Source: an uncultured archaeon
Lineage (GTDB): Archaea; Micrarchaeota; Micrarchaeia; Micrarchaeales; CABMGC01
Length of the DNA stretch: 32,000 bases
Direction: 5' to 3'
NCBI GenBank assembly: GCA_963704435.1
Contig: OY969902.1
Span: 60,001-92,000, forward strand
A program made the translations under genes and the position numbers. Positions 2,172-30,762 of this stretch are shown piece after piece. Below the pieces are notes generated by a model. The model was not told where the DNA came from. It saw only the letters and a list, made by a program, of their open reading frames with translations, and made no database searches. Numbering within the stretch: position 1 is the first letter of the stretch; each line of letters begins with the position of its first letter.

Positions 2172-2912
2172 CTAGCACAGAATCGAGGACACGCTGCCTC
2201 CTGCAGCGTTCCCCACCCCTATTATCGTGGTTACGAGCGGCTGCGCGATGAGCACGACGACCAGCCCTATTATCCCTCCAGCTATCATGGCGACCGCCCA
2301 GGCAGAGAGGCTCTTCTTGAATTCCATGTTCGTCGGGAGGAAGTGGGATGTGGCATACATCACTCCCCCGAGCAGGAAGAGCGTGAGCGCTATTATCCCG
2401 ACTATGCTCCTTACGGTGTCAACGATGCCGCAGAGCGAGAACGAGCCGCTGCTCGCGGGCGCGACCGCCACAACGGTGGTCGTCGGGAGGACGGTTGTCG
2501 ACTGCGAGGTAGTGGTCGACTGCTGCACTGCCGGGGTCACCGTAATCCCGAATGACGAGGAGCTGTCCGAGGCCTGCGGGACGCCCGAATCTGTCACGGT
2601 GATGCAGTAGTATGCGCCCCCGGGCGGAGGCGTCACCGAGAGGGTGGAGGATGTGGAAGCCAGCCCGGATACCGCCTTCAGAAGGCTGGTATCCTGCGCG
2701 CAGCCCTGCGACGTGCCCGTATACCATTCCAGCGAGTACTGGGGCGTCCCGCCGCTCCAGCTCGCGGTCAGCGTCACGCTCTGGCCCGAGTAGACGGAGG
2801 TCGTCTGCGAAGATATGGCGGCCTGTCCGAGCGAAGCGGCGCGCGGGCTCGCAACCAGCAGCATCACGAATAAGAGAGCCGCCAAGGCCGCCGGCCTGCA
2901 TGTCCTGAGCAT
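2172..2912 (-). CDS. secreted PKD/Ig-like domain protein with C-terminal VirB2/TrbC-like two-helix hairpin module
   Basis: ORF track 2172-2963; I prefer the internal ATG at 2912 (MLRTCRPAALAALLFVMLLVASPRAAS, a signal-peptide-like start). Ig-like motif SWSGGTPQYSLEWYTG...C...YYCITVTDSG, then a Thr-rich linker. The last 87 aa are homologous to the C-termini of 8244-8672, 12636-13424 and 13510-15033. Confidence 0.75.
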   Translation of the reverse strand: MLRTCRPAALAALLFVMLLVASPRAASLGQAAISSQTTSVYSGQSVTLTASWSGGTPQYSLEWYTGTSQGCAQDTSLLKAVSGLASTSSTLSVTPPPGGAYYCITVTDSGVPQASDSSSSFGITVTPAVQQSTTTSQSTTVLPTTTVVAVAPASSGSFSLCGIVDTVRSIVGIIALTLFLLGGVMYATSHFLPTNMEFKKSLSAWAVAMIAGGIIGLVVVLIAQPLVTTIIGVGNAAGGSVSSILC

Positions 2913-3007
2913 GTCACGTTCCACTCGTCCCGAATTCGGAACAGCAATAAATGCGCATGACATTCCTTAAACTTTTCGGAAATGCTCATCCTGCGGGCGA
3001 AGTCCGT

Positions 3008-5512: not shown

Positions 5513-6646
5513 ATGCTTATTTGTAGTGATAACTGCAAGTCATCCCGGGCGATCGGATTGAAGAAGATAATAGGCATAAGGGGAGTGCTCGAGGTCATAG
5601 TGATATTCGCGGCCGTGATGCTCGCGGGCGCACTCATAGCCGCGGCGGCGGTCAGGACATCCAGCGTATCCATACTCTACGACACGCTTTCTGCGCCTAC
5701 GTTCGCGGTGTTCTCCTACTTCGTCGACGCAGCGCTCATACTGATAATCGCGCTGCTCATGATCAGGAGGCATGCGCACCACAGCAATACGGTCCTGTTC
5801 GAGGCGCTCGATGGCATAGTCACCACCTTCACTTCCTTCTTCCTGTTCCTCCTGCTCTTCGCGATGCTGCTGCCCCTCTCGGTGGCGACCGGATGGGTCT
5901 ACGTGTACTCGGCCGTGACCGCGATGGCGCTGATACTGGTCAAGGACATGCACCACAGGCTCAGGGACCTAACCACGGCCGTGTCCAGCATTGGCGTGGG
6001 CCTGGTGCTCGGGCTCAACTTCCCGCTGTCCTACGCGATCTTCCTGATGGGCGCAGTGGCGGTATACGACTACATCGCAGTGTTCAAGACTAGCGAGATG
6101 GCGGACCTGGCGAGGTCATTCTCCTCGCAGGACCTCTCGTTCCTGATAAGCGTGTCCGACCTCGAGCCCGTGTCGGAGCGCGGGCTCAGCCAGAAGGAGA
6201 TAATCCGCTACATAGAGTGCCTGGCGAAGGATGACGAGCTTGACGATCCGCGGTGCAGGGCCATACTCAAGAAAGGCGAGCTCCCGGCGCAGTCCAGTGT
6301 GTCCCTCGGCGAGGGGGACCTCAGCCTGCCGCTGATGGTCATAATAAGCGCCTACGCTTCGTTCAGCCACGCGATGGCCCTGGCCGTACTGGCGGGCGCC
6401 ATAGCCGGGATCTTCGCCACAATGGCGCTGCTGAAGGCCTACAAACGCCCCATACCCGCGATACCCCCGCTGTTCTCCTGCATAGGCCTCTTCGCGGGTT
6501 CCGCGCTGCTGCTTATCGGTGGCGCGTCGGCATACGCGGGTGCGCTTCTCGTTCTGGCGTGCGCCCTAGTCATGCTCGTGGACATAGTCACGATATCCAA
6601 GAAAATGCGCGACAGCGCAGCGGAGCGTTCGCGCAGGAAGCGGTGA
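5513..6646 (+). CDS. presenilin / signal-peptide-peptidase-like intramembrane aspartyl protease (A22 family homologue)
   Basis: 377-aa polytopic ORF. YD motif in a TM helix (GAVAVYDYIAVFK). A long hydrophilic loop is followed by GxGD (SLGEGDLSLPLMV) and a PAL-like PAIPPLF in the last helices. The true start is uncertain. Confidence 0.7.
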   Translation: MLICSDNCKSSRAIGLKKIIGIRGVLEVIVIFAAVMLAGALIAAAAVRTSSVSILYDTLSAPTFAVFSYFVDAALILIIALLMIRRHAHHSNTVLFEALDGIVTTFTSFFLFLLLFAMLLPLSVATGWVYVYSAVTAMALILVKDMHHRLRDLTTAVSSIGVGLVLGLNFPLSYAIFLMGAVAVYDYIAVFKTSEMADLARSFSSQDLSFLISVSDLEPVSERGLSQKEIIRYIECLAKDDELDDPRCRAILKKGELPAQSSVSLGEGDLSLPLMVIISAYASFSHAMALAVLAGAIAGIFATMALLKAYKRPIPAIPPLFSCIGLFAGSALLLIGGASAYAGALLVLACALVMLVDIVTISKKMRDSAAERSRRKR

Positions 6647-8243: not shown

Positions 8244-8672
8244 CTAGCAGAACGCGGCAAGCACCCCGCTGCCGCCCATCGACGATCCCAGGTTCACAAT
8301 GAACGTCAGCAGCGGCTGGGCCGCAAGGACTATCACCAGCCCGGTCACGCCGCCGGTCATCATCGCAATCGCCCAGGATAGCATTGACTTCTTGAACTCG
8401 AGCTCCTTCGGCATGAAGTGGGAGGCGGCGTACAGGAGGCCGCCGAGGAGGAACAGCGCCATGACCACCATCCCGATCGCCGCCCTTATTGAGCTAACGA
8501 GCCCGCACAGGGCGGAGTCGATTGCAGAAGAGGCCCCAGGAGCCGACGCTTCCGCAGCCATTGATTCGGCAGGGACCGAGCGGACGCAGGCACAGGGAAG
8601 TAGCAGGATGCAGGCGGAAAGCGCTATGAGCAGAACCCGGGATTCACGCAGCACGGTAGTAACAATCGCCAT
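8244..8672 (-). CDS. minimal VirB2/TrbC-like pilin-hairpin protein (signal peptide, short linker, hairpin)
   Basis: 142 aa. Hydrophobic N-terminal signal (VLLIALSACILLLPCACV). C-terminal 88 aa: LCGLVSSIRAAIGMVVMALFLLGGLLYAASHFMPKELEFKKSMLSWAIAMMTGGVTGLVIVLAAQPLLTFIV...C-stop, homologous to three other ORFs in the window. Confidence 0.75.
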   Translation of the reverse strand: MAIVTTVLRESRVLLIALSACILLLPCACVRSVPAESMAAEASAPGASSAIDSALCGLVSSIRAAIGMVVMALFLLGGLLYAASHFMPKELEFKKSMLSWAIAMMTGGVTGLVIVLAAQPLLTFIVNLGSSMGGSGVLAAFC

Positions 8673-8709: not shown

Positions 8710-9807
8710 TCAGCGCCACGTTCTCCTCCTTCTGTATATCCTCGAGTACGCGACCCCGGCGGCTACCGCGACCGCTATCGCGACACCAGTTCCAATGAGC
8801 GGAAGCATATCGCCGGCATTAGGCGCAGGGGTCGTCACGGCCGGAGTGGCGTTCACTGCAGGCGCAACCGTGGTGGTCGGCGCGGTTGTCGTTGCAGTGG
8901 AAGGCACCGTGGAGGTCGCAATCTGCGGTCCAATCGTTACCGTGAAGGTCGTCGATGCGGCGTTGCCGTATGCGTCAGCCGCCGTGCAGGTCACTGCCGT
9001 ATTCCCTATCGGGAACGTCGATCCCGATGCAGGCGTGCATGTTGGCGTGAGCGCCGTGCCGTACTGGTCCGTTGCAGTTGGGGTCGTGTATGTTTCAGTT
9101 GAGCCAGCTGAAGTCGCTGCTGCAGCTGGGTCGACGTAGTTCGAGGGGGTGCCGGTTATCGTCGGAGGCGTTGCTCCCGCGCTGACAGTTATCGCCACCT
9201 CGGATGACGTTCCTGTTGCGCCTGTGCTGTCGGTTACGGTCTCGGAGACCTGATATGTTCCTGGCATTGCAAATGTGATTTGGTTGCCTGCGATTGATGC
9301 CTCTCCTTTAGCCATCGCGTCTGCGCTGTTGGAGTCAATTACCGAATACGCGTATGTGTATGGAGGTGTACCTGAAGTTGTCGAATTAGCGAATGTAACG
9401 TTCTGGCCCGTCGCGATCGCCGTGGATCCTGATGCGGATAGCGTTATCGATGGTGGGATTGTCGATACCGTCACTAACACTGGTGACGAGGTTACCGTCG
9501 CGCCCGTGCTGTCGGTTGCAGTTTCAATTACTGCATAGGTGTTTGCAGCCAAGAACATGATGGTGTTGCCCGCGACTGATGCTTCCCCATTACCCAGTGC
9601 GTTTGCGTTGCCGGAGTCAATTACCGAATACGCATATGTGTACGGAGGCGTTCCGGAGGACGTAGAATTAATGAATGTGACGTTCTGGTCCACCTGGATC
9701 ATCGTGGATCCCGATGCAGATAGCGTCAGTGCTTGCGCATGCGCCATCCCGGACAGAAATAGCATGCAGACAGCAGCCACCATGACCAGACTAAATCGCT
9801 TCGACAT
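8710..9807 (-). CDS. surface adhesin-like protein: signal peptide, 2x PKD-like repeat, HYR domain, Thr/Pro stalk, C-terminal TM anchor with basic tail
   Basis: 365 aa. AHA-QA signal-peptide cleavage-like site. Two 94-aa tandem repeats (aa 27-120 and 121-214) share SASGST..QNVTF.NST.SGTPPYTYAYSVIDS...TDSTGAT. HYR-like block TPTATDQYGTALTPTCTPASGSTFPIGNTAVTCTAADAYGNAASTTFTVTI. C-terminus MLPLIGTGVAIAVAVAAGVAYSRIYRRRRTWR. Confidence 0.85.
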   Translation of the reverse strand: MSKRFSLVMVAAVCMLFLSGMAHAQALTLSASGSTMIQVDQNVTFINSTSSGTPPYTYAYSVIDSGNANALGNGEASVAGNTIMFLAANTYAVIETATDSTGATVTSSPVLVTVSTIPPSITLSASGSTAIATGQNVTFANSTTSGTPPYTYAYSVIDSNSADAMAKGEASIAGNQITFAMPGTYQVSETVTDSTGATGTSSEVAITVSAGATPPTITGTPSNYVDPAAAATSAGSTETYTTPTATDQYGTALTPTCTPASGSTFPIGNTAVTCTAADAYGNAASTTFTVTIGPQIATSTVPSTATTTAPTTTVAPAVNATPAVTTPAPNAGDMLPLIGTGVAIAVAVAAGVAYSRIYRRRRTWR

Positions 9808-9916
9808 GACACACGCCTATGGATATCCTTTAGGCATGCAAAATTTATAATACGGTTAGTGACTTTTCGCAATGCCCGCGCAGTCCCCTCTTACGAGCCC
9901 GCCATCCTATGGGCCA

Positions 9917-10390
9917 TTACTGCTTCTTGCGCTTCCTGTCCGCAGATATCCTGGAGTACGCGACCCCGGCGGCTACCGCGACCGCTATCGCGACACCAGT
10001 TCCCATGAGGGGCAGCATCGCGCTCGGATTGGGCTGCGCAGGAGCAGGCGCCATCGCGACCGGTGCCGTCTGGTTCACTTCGACAGGCGCAGGCAGGACC
10101 GTGGTGACAAGCGTGACCGTGGTCATTGGCGCAGGAAGCACCGAAGAGGGCACCTTCATTGAGGTGTTGTTGGCTGTCGTGTTAGTCGCGCTCTCAGTCA
10201 CGTTTGTCGCATTCACTGGAGCAGTTATCGCCGTGGTGCTGGTGACGTTCAGGCTCGCCGCAATCGGCGTGCTGTTAGTCGCGTTCAAAGGCGCAGCAAC
10301 GGTGGAATTGGTCATATTCTGCGCATACGCAGTCAGGCCCATCCCTACCAGAAACAGCAGGACCATCGAGGTCATAAATCTTGTTTTCAT
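9917..10390 (-). CDS. secreted sequon-dense (N-glycosylation) stalk protein with the same C-terminal anchor as 8710-9807
   Basis: ORF track 9917-10456; I prefer the ATG at 10390 (MKTRFMTSMVLLFLVGMGLTAYA, signal-like). About 10 N-x-S/T sequons within about 55 aa (NMT NST NAT NST NVT NAT NVT NTT NNT NTS). C-terminus MLPLMGTGVAIAVAVAAGVAYSRISADRKRKKQ. Confidence 0.75.
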   Translation of the reverse strand: MKTRFMTSMVLLFLVGMGLTAYAQNMTNSTVAAPLNATNSTPIAASLNVTSTTAITAPVNATNVTESATNTTANNTSMKVPSSVLPAPMTTVTLVTTVLPAPVEVNQTAPVAMAPAPAQPNPSAMLPLMGTGVAIAVAVAAGVAYSRISADRKRKKQ

Positions 10391-10546
10391 ATCTCCACCA
10401 ATCTTAAATGCCATCATGATTGCCGATATTCCGTAGCATTCTACTGAATACCACACTTACCTAGATAAGATGTTTACGTTTATAAAACTATCTGCGGTTC
10501 TTGCACGGCAGTTCCGAGGGATGAAGACGAAGGGAGGGGCAGGCAA

Positions 10547-11296
10547 TCAAGAAGGCCTGATGCATTTGACTTCGTTTGACGCCGTGAGGTTGTACTGCTG
10601 CCCGCCGCTAAGGTTGCTGCGGGTGCTCCCGCTGGGGTAGTAGACGTACACCTGGAACGCATAAGGCCCGATTATGGCCGTGTCCGGATAGCCCACTTCG
10701 CTGTCGTTTGCTGCAAAGGAAGTCGTCGCAGGCTGGCCCGGCTCCCGCGTGCAGGAGCTTCCGTAAGAATGCCAGGCCGCGCAGGCCATGCTGCCGAAGC
10801 CGCCGGCCCAGACCAGACCGCCGGACTGAGGAGGATTATATATCAGCTTATTAATGAAGGCCGTTCCGTTCACTGGCCCTGTGATGGTGCCGTTAGCCTT
10901 GAGCGCAACCAGATAAAGTAGTCCGTTGGGGGTCCACTTGACTCCGCAGGAGACCGAGGAGAAGTTCATCGTGAATGGCGAGTTGTCCACAGGGGCGCCC
11001 TGGGAGACCGTGGTCGAAGGGGCCGGTGGCGCCACTGTGGTTGTCGAAGTGTTGACGGGCTTGTTCGGGCAGTTGTAGATAGCCCCTTGCGCGGCACAGC
11101 CGTTCGCTTCTATCCCGCAGATGTATCCGTATGGGCAAACGGTCGCGGTCGGCTGGATCGTGGACGAATTGCTGCCTGGCGTCGAGTAGGGCGCGGACTT
11201 GGGAATGACCAAGACTATTATTGCCCCTATCACTACGATTGCCGCCAGTATGCCCAGGATCATCTTCGTATTCGGTTTCGACTCCTTGTTTGCCAT
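10547..11296 (-). CDS. N-terminally anchored extracellular Cys-containing protein (hypothetical)
   Basis: 249 aa. N-terminal TM helix (MILGILAAIVVIGAIIVLVI). Cys-rich segment CPYGYICGIEANGCAAQGAIYNC, a Thr-rich linker, then a beta-rich domain with further Cys. Lies 10 bp downstream of the preceding cluster gene. Confidence 0.7.
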   Translation of the reverse strand: MANKESKPNTKMILGILAAIVVIGAIIVLVIPKSAPYSTPGSNSSTIQPTATVCPYGYICGIEANGCAAQGAIYNCPNKPVNTSTTTVAPPAPSTTVSQGAPVDNSPFTMNFSSVSCGVKWTPNGLLYLVALKANGTITGPVNGTAFINKLIYNPPQSGGLVWAGGFGSMACAAWHSYGSSCTREPGQPATTSFAANDSEVGYPDTAIIGPYAFQVYVYYPSGSTRSNLSGGQQYNLTASNEVKCIRPS

Positions 11297-11305
11297 GCCT
11301 TCCCC

Positions 11306-12406
11306 CTACGGCTGCCTAGTGAGCGTGAAAGTCTGGGTATATCCGCAGCCGACCGAGCACGAGGCGTCCGGAGGGCCTGGCGGCGCGGGCCCCGGGCTCC
11401 CGGTCAGCTTAAGGATTCCGCCGGACACCCCTCCGACATAGGTGGAGCCGTCGTTGCCCGTGAGGCTCACACCATTTCCGCTTACCGTCCCGTTAATCGT
11501 GAAGTCGACGTTTGTCTGCATGAGCCCGTAAATCACCAGGTCGCAGGTGCGGCCCGCTGGCGCAGGCTTGGTTATGGTCGTAAAGTTGACGACAAGGGTG
11601 CCGCTTACGTACGATCCGTTCTGCATCATCACGTTCAGCGTTGCATGGCCGGAATACGCGCATTGGGCGTCGCCGGCCCCGAGATCCTGCATCGTCACGG
11701 GCCCGCTCCAGATTCCGCTGACGCTTCCGCCAGATCCGGATATCGTGGTGGTGCTGCCTCGCGTGGTCGTGCTAGTGCTCTGGGATACCGTAGTGGTGCT
11801 TCCTCCCTTGACCGTGGTTGGCACGGTTGTGGTGGGGCTTACTGTAGTCGTGCCCGGGGAGGTCATAGTGGTAGTGCTGTTAATTGTGGTCGTGGTCGTA
11901 TAGCCCGGCGGCGAGACTGTGGTGGTCCTGGGAGCGCCCCTCCTAAGGACGAAGACCTGTGTGTACCCGCAGTATTTCACGCAGTTCGCTCCCACTCCCG
12001 AGAACGTCCTGTTCACGTAGAGGGTCATTATGTCGGAGTTCACCCAGCCCGTATAATTGACATCGTAGGTGTCCACCAGGTACACGTTCGTGCCGCTGAC
12101 CTGGCCCTGGACCGAGATCTGAAACGGGCCGTTGCCGTAGGAGCAGTTGAGGCCCTCCGGAGATGGGCTCGTGATTTCGATGCTGCCGCTGAACTGCCCG
12201 TTCACGGCCGCACCCGTCTGCGACAGCGCCAATGTCACGGGTCCGCCGTATGAGCAGCTGGGGATTCCAGTGTCTTCCATCGTGAAATTGCCAGTCCAGG
12301 TGCCCGCAATGTTCAGCGGTGCCACGGCGCCGGATGAGACCACCACCGCGGCCCCGGCCCCGGCCACGACAAGTGCGAAGAATACGACATTCACCAGGCT
12401 TACCAT
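11306..12406 (-). CDS. secreted protein with two homologous beta-rich domains separated by a Thr-rich linker (hypothetical)
   Basis: 366 aa with a signal-like N-terminus. Domain 1 (GTWTGNFTMED...C.YGG...CGYTQVFVLRR) and domain 2 (GIWSGPVTMQD...CAYSG...CGYTQTFTLTRQP) share start and end motifs. The linker is about 70 aa of T/S/G/P. Confidence 0.75.
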   Translation of the reverse strand: MVSLVNVVFFALVVAGAGAAVVVSSGAVAPLNIAGTWTGNFTMEDTGIPSCSYGGPVTLALSQTGAAVNGQFSGSIEITSPSPEGLNCSYGNGPFQISVQGQVSGTNVYLVDTYDVNYTGWVNSDIMTLYVNRTFSGVGANCVKYCGYTQVFVLRRGAPRTTTVSPPGYTTTTTINSTTTMTSPGTTTVSPTTTVPTTVKGGSTTTVSQSTSTTTRGSTTTISGSGGSVSGIWSGPVTMQDLGAGDAQCAYSGHATLNVMMQNGSYVSGTLVVNFTTITKPAPAGRTCDLVIYGLMQTNVDFTINGTVSGNGVSLTGNDGSTYVGGVSGGILKLTGSPGPAPPGPPDASCSVGCGYTQTFTLTRQP

Positions 12407-12635: not shown

Positions 12636-13424
12636 TCAGCACGATATCGTTATGGCGCCGCTGCCAGGCTGCGAGACTATACTTATTATTGTAGTCAGGA
12701 GCGGCTTCGCGGCCAGAACTATGACAAGCGCTATGACCGCGCCTATCAGCATCGTGGTCGACCACGTGGTGAGGCTCTTCTTGAAATCGAGGTTCGTGGG
12801 CAGGAAGTGGGATATCGAATAGAGGATTCCGCCCAGCAGGAAAAGGGTCAGCGCGAGTATGCCCACCACGTTCCTGATCTCGTCCACTATCCCGCAGAGC
12901 TGCAGGTTTATCGCCGACGCTGCCGGCTGCGCTATGGCGTTCTGGGAGGTCGCGTTGGCCGCGCCCGCAGTCGTGGTCGCGGAGGTTACCGATGTGGTGA
13001 TGGTCGTCGGAATGTAGACAGCGATCTCCGCCGCCGGGGAGAGCGCGGCAGATCCCTTGGAGTCGGCGATGTAGACGCAGTACCATGCGGTCTTGGGGGG
13101 CGTCACTACTATTGCGTCCCTGGTCGAGAAGACGCTGTCGTTCCTGAAGTTGTCGCTATCGGACTGGCATTTCTGGAACGGGCCCGAGTACCACATGACT
13201 TTGTACGGGGAAGTCCCGCCGTACCAGACTGCTATGACGTTGGCGCTCTGGCCGTAGGTTATGTTCAGCGCGTTCACCGTGACGCTGATCTGGACGATGG
13301 GGGACAGCAGCACCGGCGCGATGATGCCCGTGGGATTGCCTGTCGAGGCCGCGCCCGCAGATACAAACAGCAGCGCAAGCGCAAATGATATTGAAGTCGC
13401 CTGCAGGCCGCGCACCTTGAACAT
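12636..13424 (-). CDS. secreted PKD/Ig-like domain protein with C-terminal VirB2/TrbC-like hairpin module
   Basis: ORF track 12636-13454; I prefer the ATG at 13424 (MFKVRGLQATSISFALALLFVSAGAAS). Ig-like motif VWYGGTSPYKVMWYSG...C...WYCVYIADSKG. Last 87 aa: LCGIVDEIRNVVGILALTLFLLGGILYSISHFLPTNLDFKKSL...ISC-stop. Confidence 0.8.
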   Translation of the reverse strand: MFKVRGLQATSISFALALLFVSAGAASTGNPTGIIAPVLLSPIVQISVTVNALNITYGQSANVIAVWYGGTSPYKVMWYSGPFQKCQSDSDNFRNDSVFSTRDAIVVTPPKTAWYCVYIADSKGSAALSPAAEIAVYIPTTITTSVTSATTTAGAANATSQNAIAQPAASAINLQLCGIVDEIRNVVGILALTLFLLGGILYSISHFLPTNLDFKKSLTTWSTTMLIGAVIALVIVLAAKPLLTTIISIVSQPGSGAITISC

Positions 13425-13509
13425 AATGTAAACCTCCAGCTGGGCAATGTCCAATTAACTGAACGTAATGTTCCTTAACCCTTTCGGAGCGGAAGGCCGC
13501 TCCTGTCCT

Positions 13510-15033
13510 TCAGCAGGATATGCTCAGCGCGCTGGCCCCTGTCGCGGACGCGCCGAGGTTCGCTATCAGCGTGAGCAGCGGCTTGGCCGCTATCACCACG
13601 ACCAGGGCGACCACCGCGCCTATTATCATGGTGGTGGACCAGGTGTGGAGGCTCTTCTTGAAATCGAGGTTCGTTGGCAGGAAGTGCGACACCGCGTACA
13701 GCACCCCTCCGAGAAGGAATAGCGTGAGCGACAGTGCGCCAACTATGCCCATCACCGACCCGACGAGCCCGCAGAGCACCGAGGAGATCGCGAATACCGT
13801 GCTTTGCTGCTGCGAGGTCGAGTTGGAGCCCGGCGTTCCCCCGACCGTGCTCCTTCCCGTCAGGACCGTTATCTCTATCGCCTGAGACGCGACCGTGGCG
13901 GGGGTGTTGGACGAGTCTGTGACGGTGTAGCAGTACCAGGTGCTTCCCGAAGGGGACAGCGCTATCGAGCCCGAGGTCGCCGACAGGTTGGCGCGCACTG
14001 CCAGCGTAACCGCGTCCTGGGCGCACGATGCGGACTGGCCCACGTACCATCTCAGCGTGTATGTCGGGGTCCCCCCGCTCCAGCCCGCGGTCAGGCTCAC
14101 CGCCTGGCCGTTGCTTATGCTGGAAGCGGTAGTCACCACGTTAGCTGCCAGGATCCTCGGGTTCACCGTTACCCCCGGCGACTCGTTGCTGACGGCCTTC
14201 CCCCTTGCGTATGCCACTGTCACCCTGCCCAGCAGCACGTTCCCCGCCTCCGCGGCGTTGGTCGTGTACGCAAGCGAGTTGTAGGCCATCGAGTTCGCAT
14301 TTATCACGTTCGCGAGCGCGTTCCCCGTGGCTGCGCTGACTATCACGAAATCGTAGGAGACGGGGGTGTAGTTCCCGTTCGCCATCGCGTTGAAAACCAC
14401 GGCCTGCCCCGCGTCTATCACGGTGCTGCTCACGGATATCAGCGGCGTCGGATAGACCGGCGGGGGCGCCATTGACTGCGAGAGCAGGAGCGCGGCGGCC
14501 GCGACCACGATCAGTATTATCGCTATCGCGGCGATGCTCTTCCACGGGATGCTCCGCTCCTCGTCCTCTTCGTTTTCGTACGCGCCGCCCGCTTTCGCCT
14601 CCTGCGGCACGTTCCTGCCTTCCTCTTCATGAACCGCTTCCGCTTCGGGCCCGGCTTCCTTTGGCGCGTGGCGCTCCTCCTGTTTTTCACCGGAAGCTAT
14701 CTGGCTCTCCTGCGCGGCGCCTTTCTCTTCCTCGCGGGCGCGCTCTTCGCGATGCTCCACGTGCCCCTCCTCCTGCTTGCGCTCCTCGCGGTGCTCTTCA
14801 GGGGGGCGCTCATGATGAGCCTCCTCGTATTTTTCCTCTGGCTTGTGCTCTTCGTGCTGGGCCTCCTTGTGCTCCTCCTTCGGCTTGCGCTCCTCATGGG
14901 CATGCTTGTGTTCCTCCCCGTGCTCCTTCCCCTCCTCGCGATGCTCCTTGTCCTTGTGCTCGGGATGCTGCGGCTCCTTGCGCTTCTTTCCGGCGCCCCC
15001 TTCCTTATGACCTGCCTTGTTTTCCTTCGCCAT
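13510..15033 (-). CDS. membrane protein: His/Glu/Lys-rich N-terminal tail, TM helix, two Ig-like domains, C-terminal VirB2/TrbC-like hairpin module
   Basis: 507 aa. The first ~165 aa are low-complexity H/E/K/R (HKEGG..EHKDKEHREEGKEHGEEHKHAHEE...). TM helix IAAIAIILIVVAAAALLL. Ig-like motif GWSGGTPTYTLRWYVG..C..WYCYTVTDSS. Last 88 aa: LCGLVGSVMGIVGALSLTLFLLGGVLYAVSHFLPTNLDFKKSL...ISC-stop. Confidence 0.8.
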   Translation of the reverse strand: MAKENKAGHKEGGAGKKRKEPQHPEHKDKEHREEGKEHGEEHKHAHEERKPKEEHKEAQHEEHKPEEKYEEAHHERPPEEHREERKQEEGHVEHREERAREEEKGAAQESQIASGEKQEERHAPKEAGPEAEAVHEEEGRNVPQEAKAGGAYENEEDEERSIPWKSIAAIAIILIVVAAAALLLSQSMAPPPVYPTPLISVSSTVIDAGQAVVFNAMANGNYTPVSYDFVIVSAATGNALANVINANSMAYNSLAYTTNAAEAGNVLLGRVTVAYARGKAVSNESPGVTVNPRILAANVVTTASSISNGQAVSLTAGWSGGTPTYTLRWYVGQSASCAQDAVTLAVRANLSATSGSIALSPSGSTWYCYTVTDSSNTPATVASQAIEITVLTGRSTVGGTPGSNSTSQQQSTVFAISSVLCGLVGSVMGIVGALSLTLFLLGGVLYAVSHFLPTNLDFKKSLHTWSTTMIIGAVVALVVVIAAKPLLTLIANLGASATGASALSISC

Positions 15034-17085: not shown

Positions 17086-17324
17086 TAGTGGTGTGCCGTA
17101 GCCTCTCTTCTGTTTTAGGTGGCATTCGACTTAGCGGCGTTCTGCCTTGCACGCTCACTGTACGCGCATCGGCGCGTTTCACGCGCACGCGCACGCTCGT
17201 CGCGTCATCGCTTTATGTGCGCCAGCGCTTGCGTTTCTGCTCCGAATATGGCCTTGGGCCTCGCGTACTCCGCGTGGAGAGAGCTTCCTCAGTCTTTCGA
17301 CCGTAAGCCACCCGCACACCACTA
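17086..17324 (-). ncRNA. rnpB: RNase P RNA (compact, type-A-like)
   Basis: Read on the minus strand.
- P1: 5' UAGUGGUGUGC pairs perfectly (11 bp) with 3' GCACACCACUA.
- P2: GGUGGC pairs with GCCACC.
- P3: GGUC-GAAA-GACU.
- CR-I-like GAGGAAGCUCUCUCC.
- CR-IV/CR-V-like AAGUCGAAUGCCACCUAAAACAGAAGAGAGGCUAC (compare E. coli AGAUGAAUG...ACAGAA...GGCUUA).
- P4: AGC[U]CUCUC pairs with GAGAGGCU, leaving a bulged U.
- TATA ttatataaa is centred about 26 nt upstream of the predicted 5' end.
Ends are good to a few nt. Confidence 0.75.
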
Positions 17325-22756: not shown

Positions 22757-22854
22757 AAGCGATCACTACACATTGGCAGAGAGCTATTAAAAGGTTTTAA
22801 TGAACGTAGTTCCGCCAGAAAAGAAGTGGGCTGCGGCGGTGTTCCAATGTCCAG

Positions 22855-22929
22855 TGCTCTGGTCGGGATTCGAACCCGAGTTACAGACTTGAGAGGCCTG
22901 TGTCCTTGACCGGACTAGACGACCAGAGC
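22855..22929 (-). tRNA. tRNA-Glu (anticodon CUC)
   Basis: 75-nt cloverleaf folded by hand. Acceptor GCUCUGG/CCAGAGC. D arm GUCU/GGAC. Anticodon stem CAGGC/GUCUG with loop C-U-CUC-A-A. T arm UCGGG-UUCGAAU-CCCGA. Discriminator A. CCA is not encoded. Confidence 0.9.
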
Positions 22930-29594: not shown

Positions 29595-30128
29595 ATGCAA
29601 ACTAGAGCTATGCCGCGCGTCAGGGCGACGGCCGCGGAACTGATGGAAAGACCTGAAATACGGGAGAAGTTCGATGGCAACCTTAAACTATTGCAGAATA
29701 AATTGGGCCGTCATACGAGTCACGTGCACTGGTTTGATTACCGCGTCCGATTCGGGAAAGAGCATGTATGCAGGAGCTTCAGAACATGTTTTGGCGAAGA
29801 TGTTGTGTTTGGCTCTTGCACAGCAGTAGGCCCCTATGCTACCATAGCCAAGAATACTGAGATAAAGATGGGGGCCGTGATCGGCGGTTACGTTAAAATA
29901 GGTTCTGATGTAACCATAGGCCCCTATTCTTTCATAAGCCACGATGTGACAATCGGAAATGGATCTGTCATCGGAACCCGGGTATTTATTGACTCACGCG
30001 TTGGAATAGGTCGCCACATCAAAATCGGGGATGGTGCTTCGATAGGTCTTCTGGACAATAGCGTGGACAGGGATATTGGAGAGATGGAAAGATATCCTCC
30101 TTGCAGGCATCTGCTGCGCAAAATCTGA
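29595..30128 (+). CDS. hexapeptide-repeat (left-handed beta-helix) protein, paralogue 1
   Basis: 177 aa. At least 10 consecutive [LIV]-G-x4 hexads (VIGGYVKIGSDVTIGPYSFISHDVTIGNGSVIGTRVFIDSRVGIGRHIKIGDGASIG). The ~55-aa N-terminal extension is shared with 30232-30762. Confidence 0.65.
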   Translation: MQTRAMPRVRATAAELMERPEIREKFDGNLKLLQNKLGRHTSHVHWFDYRVRFGKEHVCRSFRTCFGEDVVFGSCTAVGPYATIAKNTEIKMGAVIGGYVKIGSDVTIGPYSFISHDVTIGNGSVIGTRVFIDSRVGIGRHIKIGDGASIGLLDNSVDRDIGEMERYPPCRHLLRKI

Positions 30129-30231: not shown

Positions 30232-30762
30232 ATGGCAACGAAAACAAATCAAAACACCAGAGCTCTGGCTAACGTTCTGATTGAAAGGGCCGAGCTGTGG
30301 CATATGTTCAAGGGGAATCAGGAAATATTTATCGCGGAATTGGGAACTACTGGAAAAATGAAGCGGTTTGAGGATTCTGTCCATTACGACAAGCCATGCG
30401 AGCACGAAGGCAGCATCAACATCGGAAAGGGTACGGAGATCGGCGCGCGTGTGGCGATAGGCTCGAACGTTTCCATAGGCAAAAACGTGCGTATCGGAGA
30501 AGGTGCGGTGATTTGCGATGGCGTGACAATAGGCAGCGGGGCGACGATCGGCGCAGCCGCATTCCTAGGATATTCTTCGATAGCCAATAAGGATTCCTCC
30601 ATTGGCGCACTCGTCAGATTCGGGCGTTTTGCGGTATTATACGAAGGCTGCCGCGTGGGGGACGGCGCTCAGATAGGTTATCATGCGCTAGTGCGCGAGG
30701 ATGTGGCCTCGCTGGGATGGATTCCTAATAATCATGATTTGCAGCGCAAAACTGAGATCTAA
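30232..30762 (+). CDS. hexapeptide-repeat (left-handed beta-helix) protein, paralogue 2
   Basis: 176 aa. IGARVAIGSNVSIGKNVRIGEGAVICDGVTIGSGATIGAAAFLG has strict 6-residue periodicity. N-terminal VLIERAELWHMFKGN parallels ELMERPEIREKFDGN of paralogue 1. Confidence 0.7.
   Translation: MATKTNQNTRALANVLIERAELWHMFKGNQEIFIAELGTTGKMKRFEDSVHYDKPCEHEGSINIGKGTEIGARVAIGSNVSIGKNVRIGEGAVICDGVTIGSGATIGAAAFLGYSSIANKDSSIGALVRFGRFAVLYEGCRVGDGAQIGYHALVREDVASLGWIPNNHDLQRKTEI

Follow-up and report, generated by a model that had tools for sequence, protein, structure and literature searches.

Candidate disulfide-stapled VirB2-like pilin modules, several fused to V-set immunoglobulin-like domains, in a Micrarchaeota genome and their link to a T4SS-like operon of related genomes

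Pilins of the VirB2/TrbC superfamily are subunits of type IV secretion systems (T4SS) and conjugative pili, and the 32-kb stretch of contig OY969902.1 studied here (the window, meaning the whole stretch of DNA that was analysed) raises the question of whether Micrarchaeota also encode such proteins and, if so, in what form. Four minus-strand open reading frames (ORFs) of the window, referred to below as paralogues 1 to 4 (Table 1), share one C-terminal helix-loop-helix module of ~88 aa, which the original prediction had likened to VirB2/TrbC pilins. The interpretation that we consider probable is that these proteins are VirB2-superfamily subunits of a Micrarchaeota T4SS-like apparatus and are stapled by a disulfide, with the minimal form acting as the bulk subunit and the forms fused to immunoglobulin (Ig)-like domains acting as surface-displayed adhesins. 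The window itself is archaeal, as indicated by an RNase P RNA at 17087-17323 on the minus strand (Rfam RF00373, 90 bits). A tRNA-Glu(CUC) at 22854-22929 on the same strand fits this origin, and the ORF list includes genes that we take, from their sequences alone, to encode archaeal-type PheRS alpha and beta, an RFC-like ATPase, and ThiI.

We began from the module itself. When the C-terminal ~97 residues of the four ORFs were aligned with MAFFT, 33 columns proved invariant, among them L-C-G, LFLLGG, Y, SHF-P, FKKS, W, M, G, LV-V, A-PL-T, and a terminal Cys, which is the final codon before the stop in all four ORFs. The modules lie exactly where they had been placed, the consensus string proposed for them is accurate, both Cys are indeed invariant, and paralogue 2 is the sole minimal form of the four. 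The alignment had also been described as gap-free, which is true of the helix-loop-helix core but not of the Gly/Ser-rich tail, where a single 1-residue indel makes the module either 87 or 88 aa long. Each ORF matched a 35-member family profile, which contains the four modules, with E values of 5e-44 to 2e-43, and the similarity among the modules would seem far beyond chance. Since identical or orthologous proteins are present in public metagenomes, the four genes can be considered real. Paralogue 2 is 100% identical to database protein P0001, paralogue 3 has 95% identity to P0039, and paralogue 1 has 49% identity to P0040, while P0041 is an orthologue of paralogue 4 with the same architecture and 61% identity over the full length. 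The pair of paralogues 4 and 3 is also syntenic in another contig, the one with P0041. Judging from P0041 and P0040, the fused architectures are conserved genes. The likely true starts of paralogues 1 and 3 are internal, at M18 (nt 2912) and M11 (nt 13424), respectively, and the latter agrees with the start of P0039. Outside the window, the module of paralogue 1 has 70-88% identity to minimal pilins of other Micrarchaeota.

Structure prediction agreed with the sequences in depicting the module as two hydrophobic helices joined by a short basic loop, as originally proposed. The AlphaFold2 model of paralogue 2 (m9c55e0397f68) has helices at residues 3-29 (signal), 47-86, and 92-131, with a model confidence (predicted local distance difference test, pLDDT) of ~90 in the hairpin; the minimal form is thus a 40+40-residue helical hairpin plus a signal helix. 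In the model of paralogue 1 (m643e8a895591), a beta-sandwich at residues 28-126 (pLDDT ~90) is followed by a linker at 132-157 (pLDDT <50) and by hairpin helices at 157-191 and 197-236. The two hydrophobic helices and the short positive loop between them occur in all four proteins, behind a signal peptide in paralogues 1 to 3 and behind a signal-anchor, not a cleavable signal peptide, in paralogue 4. Because the N-terminus is exported and basic residues occur solely in the inter-helix loop (FKKS), the module is predicted to be N-out, loop-in, and C-out, which places both Cys outside the cell. Paralogue 4 is predicted to span the membrane three times with a cytoplasmic N-terminus, since no signal peptide precedes its hydrophobic anchor. 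Its N-terminal region is extremely charged and of low complexity, with HKEEHKE-type repeats ahead of the membrane anchor, and is kept in P0041; it may be a cytoplasmic domain with a role related to metals or pH.

The ectodomains had been described as PKD/Ig-like, of which only the Ig-like part stood. A Foldseek search of the PDB with the sandwich of paralogue 1 placed nanobody VHH, PD-1, and T-cell receptor V domains on top (E 3e-5, probability 1.00, TM-score ~0.64 when normalised to the target), and Pfam Ig_3 matched the same ectodomain at E 7e-4, which is under its threshold. Since Foldseek groups this fold with V-set immunoglobulin domains, it is better labelled V-set than PKD.

The relationship of the module to VirB2/TrbC pilins emerged from its wider family. 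A word-indexed search returned 37 close relatives, most of which are minimal proteins of 120-130 aa and one of which is named Candidatus Micrarchaeota. The 35-sequence family profile was then run with HMMER against 1.8 billion library proteins, and this exhaustive search yielded 307 cluster representatives at E<=1e-3. Among 115 small relatives, 32 matched Pfam TrbC at E<=0.01 (best 1.3e-7) and 32 matched T4SS_pilin at the same limit (best 1.4e-6). Against a TrbC gathering score of 27.9, P0122 reaches 29.0 bits and P0138 29.2 bits, and P0120 (26.8 bits) clears the T4SS_pilin gathering score of 26.6, with nearly the whole model covered in each case. P0122, P0138, and P0120 also match the profile of the window family, with E values of 5e-12, 3e-10, and 4e-12, respectively. 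This homology is transitive. It was complemented by a profile-profile comparison with a VirB2 reference. A word-indexed search with a TrwL fragment found only 3 close sequences, so the reference was taken from 7 annotated TrwL/VirB2 genes adjoining virB3/virB4 on plasmids. When a superfamily alignment of 200 modules was compared with this reference in hhalign, the probability was 64% (E 6.5e-5) and helix 1, loop, and helix 2 were in register, whereas control alignments of three other membrane-protein families of the archaeal operon described below gave 0.1%. TrwL, the VirB2 of plasmid R388, was also the sole PDB sequence found by the wider superfamily profile (E 0.58). From these results, homology of the module to the VirB2/TrbC superfamily is likely and of moderate strength, if not proven to HHpred standards, and the placement of the four ORFs as paralogues in a DPANN (Micrarchaeota-centred) branch of that superfamily is supported by the comparisons above.

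Two other classes of surface protein were considered and rejected. Archaeosortase-type C-terminal signals (PGF-CTERM and relatives) consist of a short motif, a single transmembrane (TM) helix, and a basic C-terminal tail, whereas the module consists of a pair of helices with a basic loop in the cytoplasm, and its Gly/Ser tail is uncharged and terminates in Cys. Type IV filament (TFF) pilins and archaellins have a single hydrophobic helix, which is N-terminal and comes after a class III signal peptide, whereas the window proteins have Sec-type signal peptides at their N-termini and a hydrophobic hairpin at the C-terminal end.

A key feature of the family is its Cys pair. Both Cys are present in all 35 close relatives, where the second is the last or penultimate residue, and in 204 of 207 complete modules, with a median spacing of 83 residues. 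The only two modules without the C-terminal Cys (P0121 and P0172, from visibly different sub-branches) are also without the N-terminal one, a joint loss with a Fisher's exact p of 1.4e-4, uncorrected for relatedness. The core from the first TM helix through the loop to the second is otherwise free of Cys in 206 of 214 modules. This pattern is what would be expected of a disulfide pair and favours a Cys-Cys bond, so the disulfide that had been suggested gains from near-universal conservation and joint loss while itself being unproven. In the two AlphaFold2 models, the first Cys is opposite a point ~9 residues before the end of helix 2, and the second lies on a flexible tail of 10-11 residues. 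With these helix boundaries and this tail, an intramolecular bond is sterically possible, as is a bond to a neighbouring subunit.

The family is also diverse in architecture. Of the best 150 among the 307 family representatives, 108 (72%) are minimal, 19 have an N-terminal ectodomain ahead of the module, 12 have a C-terminal extension with the second Cys kept ahead of it, 2 are extended at both ends, 6 contain 2-7 tandem modules, and 3 are fragments. Thus, about a quarter of these representatives have N- or C-terminal ectodomains or tandem modules. Tandem-module proteins include P0038, P0043, P0058, P0092, and P0158, and an extra C-terminal TM anchor occurs in P0054 and P0069. P0043 (L027 10001-11899) has 4 tandem modules and P0038 (1071 aa) has 7, each module with its own Cys pair and all of them behind an N-terminal ectodomain. 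The N-out/C-out topology of the module renders all of these architectures consistent with one another. A side-chain staple, unlike head-to-tail cyclisation, would leave both termini free, which we think is the most economical explanation for the tolerance of fusions in this branch of the superfamily.

We were interested in the genomic setting of the minimal pilin genes of related organisms. Loci were recovered from species-representative Micrarchaeota genomes (22 loci), and at 17 of the 22, as well as on further metagenome contigs, the minimal pilin gene heads a conserved same-strand operon. One to three tandem pilin genes are followed, often, by a gene for a ~640-aa protein with 12 TM segments, and then by genes for a ~243-aa protein with 6 TM segments, six paralogues with ~7 TM segments (7-TM paralogues), a pair of ~277-aa proteins, and a soluble Walker-A ATPase of ~502 aa; four further genes come last. 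The operon of ~16 genes spans 10373-20369 in L001, 4280-19669 in L021, and 1459-18764 in L014, and is found at 14 or more other loci; it also holds a Zn-ribbon protein with 2 TM segments, a coiled-coil/winged helix-turn-helix protein, and a ~800-aa protein. Among the operon members scanned, no Pfam family was found for any except the ATPase. The ATPase scores 60 bits for DUF87/HerA and 48 bits for AAA_10, both above the Pfam thresholds, and its best NCBIfam matches are CedD (8e-20; 71 bits, cut-off 600) and CedB (4e-17; 62 bits, cut-off 700), followed by a match to VirB4-like CD1110 (2.5e-16), all of them far under the equivalog cut-offs. In the PDB it matches HerA (best) and VirB4 (4ag5). By these matches, the ATPase would belong to the same clade as the CedB/CedD/TedB-type ATPases, yet not as an equivalog. 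The six 7-TM paralogues have in common the motif LRSFPFTRxxGGxLIAI, and their likeness to VirB6 consists only of topology, position, and a pilin-like N-terminal hairpin; the hairpins of the second and fourth matched the pilin profile with probabilities of 84% (E 8e-6) and 40%, respectively. Similar hairpin kinship has been reported for CedA versus CedA1 and for VirB6 versus VirB2 (Beltran et al., PMC9905601).

The operon occupies a fixed site on the chromosome, with Pelota, TBP, L21e, DUF655, Rpb4, and MoxR genes upstream and, downstream, a gene for a ~455-aa protein that we take from its sequence to be topoisomerase VI B. The gene of the MoxR-type AAA+ ATPase lies directly upstream of the pilin gene, as in L001 (8998-9906), L003 (7463-8380), and L036 (9043-9951). 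No integrase or relaxase was recognised in the operon flanks. A mobile conjugative element was therefore rejected, and it follows from the fixed site and the flanks that the operon is a core chromosomal system. The window organism very probably carries this operon as well, at a position outside the window, because P0006, which has 72% identity to the module of paralogue 1, is operon-linked at the canonical site. Two arrangements in relatives appear to link the fused pilins to the T4SS-like machine. At one locus (L027), the operon is immediately preceded by the 4-module protein P0043, two pilins with fused ectodomains, and one minimal pilin. At another (L014 6785-8773), a 7-TM operon paralogue of 662 aa contains an insert with homology to the V-set Ig-like domain seen in the window paralogues; the Ig region of paralogue 3 matches this insert, and tblastn matched the insert to window positions 13849-14127 in paralogue 4 (E 6e-10).

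Taken together, these data suggest the following mechanism. The N-terminal signal peptide, or the signal-anchor in the case of paralogue 4, would export each protein, and the module would insert as a hairpin, with helix 1 running from outside to inside, the short basic loop (SHFLPTNLEFKKS) in the cytoplasm, helix 2 returning to the outside, and the Gly/Ser tail last. We infer that a T4SS-like machine encoded on the chromosome pulls the hairpins out of the membrane and assembles them, as happens with conjugative and Ced/Ted pili. In relatives, the candidate for this machine is encoded directly downstream of the minimal pilin and would comprise the six polytopic paralogues and the soluble HerA/VirB4/CedB-like ATPase. 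The two extracellular Cys, one in the first turn of helix 1 and the other closing the tail, would most likely be disulfide-bonded, tying the ends of the hairpin. Paralogues 1, 3, and 4 would expose their V-set Ig-like domains outside the filament or on the cell surface, probably as host-cell adhesins.

A number of results weigh against such an interpretation. The window proteins themselves matched Pfam TrbC at E 0.2 (12.3 bits; cut-off 27.9), which is not significant, and T4SS_pilin at a sub-threshold E of 0.2-0.4, so the kinship named in the original prediction is upheld through the intermediates and the profile-profile comparison and not by direct Pfam matches. The close family alone reached 6.6% against the TrwL/VirB2 reference in hhalign. 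Neither sequence searches nor Foldseek matched the solved pilins F-pilin, T-pilin, CedA1, and TedC. The suggestion that the module has the fold of CedA1 and TedC is accordingly not supported, since neither was returned by Foldseek or by profile searches of PDB sequences, among which the CedA1 and TedC pili deposited with PMC9905601 are expected. The 4- and 35-sequence profiles found chance matches only among PDB sequences (OST3, cytochrome oxidase II, and similar), and Foldseek of the minimal-form model against the PDB gave nothing below E 1.8, only generic hairpins; a two-helix hairpin is too simple for a fold search to discriminate. No T4SS-like gene lies within the 32-kb window, and the 7-TM paralogues of the operon have no Pfam, NCBIfam, or PDB match, for which reason we do not call them VirB6 homologues. 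The tail with the second Cys has a low pLDDT. Paralogue 4 and P0041 could not leave the membrane as pilus subunits unless cleaved, given their extra anchor and ~163-aa cytoplasmic domain, and proteins with 4-7 tandem modules or a further C-terminal TM segment (P0054, P0069) resemble resident membrane proteins. Furthermore, related monoderm conjugation systems (MPF-FATA) are without VirB2-like pilins (PMC12102498). Part of this would be expected if the module were an unrelated two-TM hairpin with a compositional likeness to VirB2, i.e. a lineage-specific small membrane protein, and the ATPase a HerA-type helicase outside secretion: the direct matches are insignificant, Foldseek gives generic hairpins only, and the ATPase matches HerA best in the PDB and falls far under every NCBIfam equivalog cut-off. 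We nevertheless regard this as very improbable, since relatives pass the Pfam gathering thresholds over full models, hydrophobic control families reach 0.1% versus 64% for VirB2, the architecture of signal peptide, hairpin, and basic loop is conserved, and in at least 17 genomes the operon keeps its synteny, with an AAA_10/CedB/CedD/VirB4-like ATPase and several paralogous polytopic proteins.

The module could alternatively be a membrane-resident docking or anchor module, that is, a VirB2-homologous hairpin that stays unpolymerised, oligomerises with or plugs into a channel complex of 7-TM proteins and ATPase, and presents Ig-like and other ectodomains there, with the Cys pair stabilising the extracellular face or cross-linking neighbours. 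The third TM segment and large cytoplasmic N-terminal domain of paralogue 4 and P0041 would fit this arrangement, as would the 2-7 tandem modules of some proteins and the extra C-terminal anchor of others, the pilin-like hairpin with which the 7-TM operon proteins start, the derivation of pilins from bona fide membrane proteins according to Beltran et al. (PMC9905601), and the monoderm systems mentioned above. We consider it rather unlikely for the family as a whole, because the 72% of representatives that are minimal have nothing to anchor and because the minimal gene comes first in the operon, often in 2-3 tandem copies, which is the pattern of an excess structural subunit. These tandem minimal genes match the pilin arrays of Patescibacteria (PMC12102498), and archaeal monoderms do make VirB2-like pili (CedA1, TedC; PMC9905601). 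The docking role is strongest for paralogue 4, the tandem-module proteins, and the forms with an extra C-terminal anchor, and polymerisation and docking are compatible with each other across different paralogues. A separate doubt concerns the partners of the Cys pair, as the tail Cys might instead bond to the helix-1 Cys of a neighbour, in which case the result would be a cross-linked, acid-stable polymer and no mimic of cyclisation. The joint presence and loss of both Cys would fit equally well, and in the models helix 2 overshoots the first Cys by ~9 residues while the low-confidence tail could reach a neighbouring subunit. Many Micrarchaeota inhabit acidic or hot places, where covalent stabilisation would be useful. 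An intramolecular link is nonetheless favoured by the adjacent termini of a single subunit in the cyclic pilins TrbC, VirB2, and TrhA, and each module of the tandem-module proteins retains its own Cys pair, so we judge bonds between subunits to be unlikely.

Under the interpretation of the modules as VirB2-superfamily subunits, comparison with known systems is instructive. Like TrbC/VirB2 (PF04956; TrwL of R388, VirB2 of Ti, TrbC of RP4), the Micrarchaeota proteins combine a Sec signal peptide with two hydrophobic helices and a short basic loop, share the register of a conserved aromatic residue where helix 1 ends and of a Trp where helix 2 begins (hhalign), are encoded at the head of an operon with a VirB4-type ATPase (here in Micrarchaeota relatives), and appear to have the ends of the hairpin tied together. 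They differ in that the system is archaeal, chromosomal, and syntenic with housekeeping genes, with no relaxase, VirB3, or VirB8 recognised; in having a Cys pair in place of peptide-bond cyclisation; in their ectodomain fusions and tandem modules; and in that the window proteins fall under the Pfam threshold. In the cyclic pilins (RP4 TrbC, Ti VirB2, R27 TrhA), the ends of the hairpin are likewise proposed to be covalently joined on the outer face, whereas a putative side-chain disulfide would need no TraF-like peptidase or cyclase and would leave the termini free for fusions. A published study (PMC12102498) describes VirB2-like pilin arrays of divergent paralogues near a VirB4-like ATPase, without a relaxase, in Patescibacteria. 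These T4SS_pilin (PF18895) arrays of Patescibacteria, or candidate phyla radiation bacteria, also belong to ultrasmall host-dependent organisms with paralogue arrays, and relatives of the window family match PF18895. The arrays are bacterial, however, whereas the partners in Micrarchaeota are six 7-TM paralogues and a 500-aa soluble ATPase, and PMC12102498, as far as it was read, reports no Ig-like fusions or conserved Cys pair. The Ced and Ted pili described for Thermoproteota (PMC9905601; PMC11868833) are used in DNA import and resemble the Micrarchaeota system in being an archaeal, chromosomal, minimal T4SS-like set in which a pilin is joined by one or more polytopic membrane proteins and an ATPase of the HerA/VirB4 clade. 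The polytopic protein begins with a pilin-like hairpin in these systems too (PMC9905601), CedD and CedB are the best NCBIfam matches of the ATPase, and TedC also has a cleavable signal peptide. In contrast, there is no detectable sequence similarity to CedA1 or TedC, there are six polytopic paralogues versus one or two, the ATPase has no TM segment and scores ~10-fold under the equivalog cut-offs, and the lineages are DPANN and Thermoproteota, respectively.

The coordinates of the four paralogues and of the genes between them are collected in Table 1. The four intervening genes and the adjoining paralogues form a 6.8-kb same-strand island of surface-protein genes. The first (8710-9807) matched Pfam HYR (8.5e-12) and PKD (7.5e-8), while no Pfam match was found for the other three. 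Their functional tie to the pilins is only positional, and homologues of the four genes are absent from the T4SS-like operons of relatives. The first two, 8710-9807 and the Asn/Thr/Ser-rich 9917-10456, are otherwise unrelated and share a near-identical C-terminal MLPL[IM]GTGVAIAVAVAAGVAYSRI followed by a basic tail, which looks like a sorting or anchor signal. Between paralogues 1 and 2, a plus-strand gene (5513-6646) encodes an intramembrane aspartyl protease of the presenilin/signal-peptide-peptidase family (Pfam SPP 5e-11; YD and GxGD motifs); that it processes the signal-anchored paralogues is conceivable, if unsupported. Elsewhere in the window, two plus-strand genes (29595-30128 and 30232-30762) encode tandem paralogues of ~177 aa, rich in hexapeptide-like (I/V-G-x-x-x-x) repeats, which form one family by all-against-all BLAST.

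Table 1. Positions in the window of the pilin-like paralogues, their parts, and the genes between paralogues 2 and 3
Feature	Position	Strand	Description
Paralogue 1	2172..2963	-	263 aa; Sec-type signal peptide, V-set Ig-like domain, Ser/Thr-rich disordered linker, C-terminal pilin-like module
V-set Ig-like ectodomain of paralogue 1	2535..2831	-	W...YYC motif inside; Foldseek, Pfam
Pilin-like module of paralogue 1	2172..2435	-	Cys, helix 1, SHFLPTNMEFKKS loop, helix 2, Gly/Ser tail, terminal Cys
Paralogue 2 (minimal)	8244..8672	-	142 aa; signal peptide, short linker, module (8244-8510)
Four secreted or membrane-anchored protein genes between paralogues 2 and 3	8710..12406	-	8710-9807, 9917-10456, 10547-11296, 11306-12406
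Paralogue 3	12636..13454	-	272 aa; signal peptide, one Ig-like domain (~13011-13307), Ser/Thr linker, module (12636-12899)
Paralogue 4	13510..15033	-	507 aa; two beta-rich ectodomains, linker, module (13510-13776); predicted 3 TM
Beta-rich ectodomains of paralogue 4	~14158-14457 and ~13858-14148	-	second is of V-set-like type
Hydrophobic signal-anchor of paralogue 4	14476-14544	-	one segment
N-terminal region of paralogue 4	14545-15033	-	~163 aa, His/Glu/Lys-rich, no signal peptide

Full-text literature, searched in open-access papers only and thus weak evidence of novelty, contained no description of a system of this kind in DPANN. The family would represent a branch of VirB2-like pilins that is disulfide-paired, tolerates fusions, and bears Ig-like domains, and that is tied to an archaeal T4SS-like operon apparently not described before. 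It points to a secretion or pilus apparatus, so far undescribed, through which Micrarchaeota may make contact with their hosts. Cryo-electron tomography of a co-culture of Micrarchaeota ARM-1 has revealed protein nanotubes with a 6.7-nm outer diameter and a 4.4-nm lumen, as well as a 21-nm barrel in the DPANN envelope (PMC11329633); neither has been assigned to genes, and the authors ascribe the tubes to the host (PMC11329633). It is speculation, and in our estimation improbable, that a vertically inherited T4SS-like machine of Micrarchaeota, and probably of other DPANN, builds part of these tubes or of the 21-nm docking barrel. If true, the machine would be a conduit for the uptake of lipids, metabolites, or DNA by genome-reduced symbionts. 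DPANN depend on physical contact with a host, and the molecules of that contact are almost entirely uncharacterised. The operon and its diversified family of surface-exposed VirB2-like proteins provide concrete genes that can be tested for a part in how Micrarchaeota attach to hosts and transfer material, in parallel to the T4SS and pilin arrays found in ultrasmall symbionts among the bacteria (Patescibacteria). For the pilins themselves, the family suggests a second chemistry for tying the ends of the subunit, disulfide versus cyclisation, which would permit large domains on a VirB2 scaffold. Such a disulfide-tied scaffold bears on the proposed origin of pilins from membrane proteins and could serve engineering.

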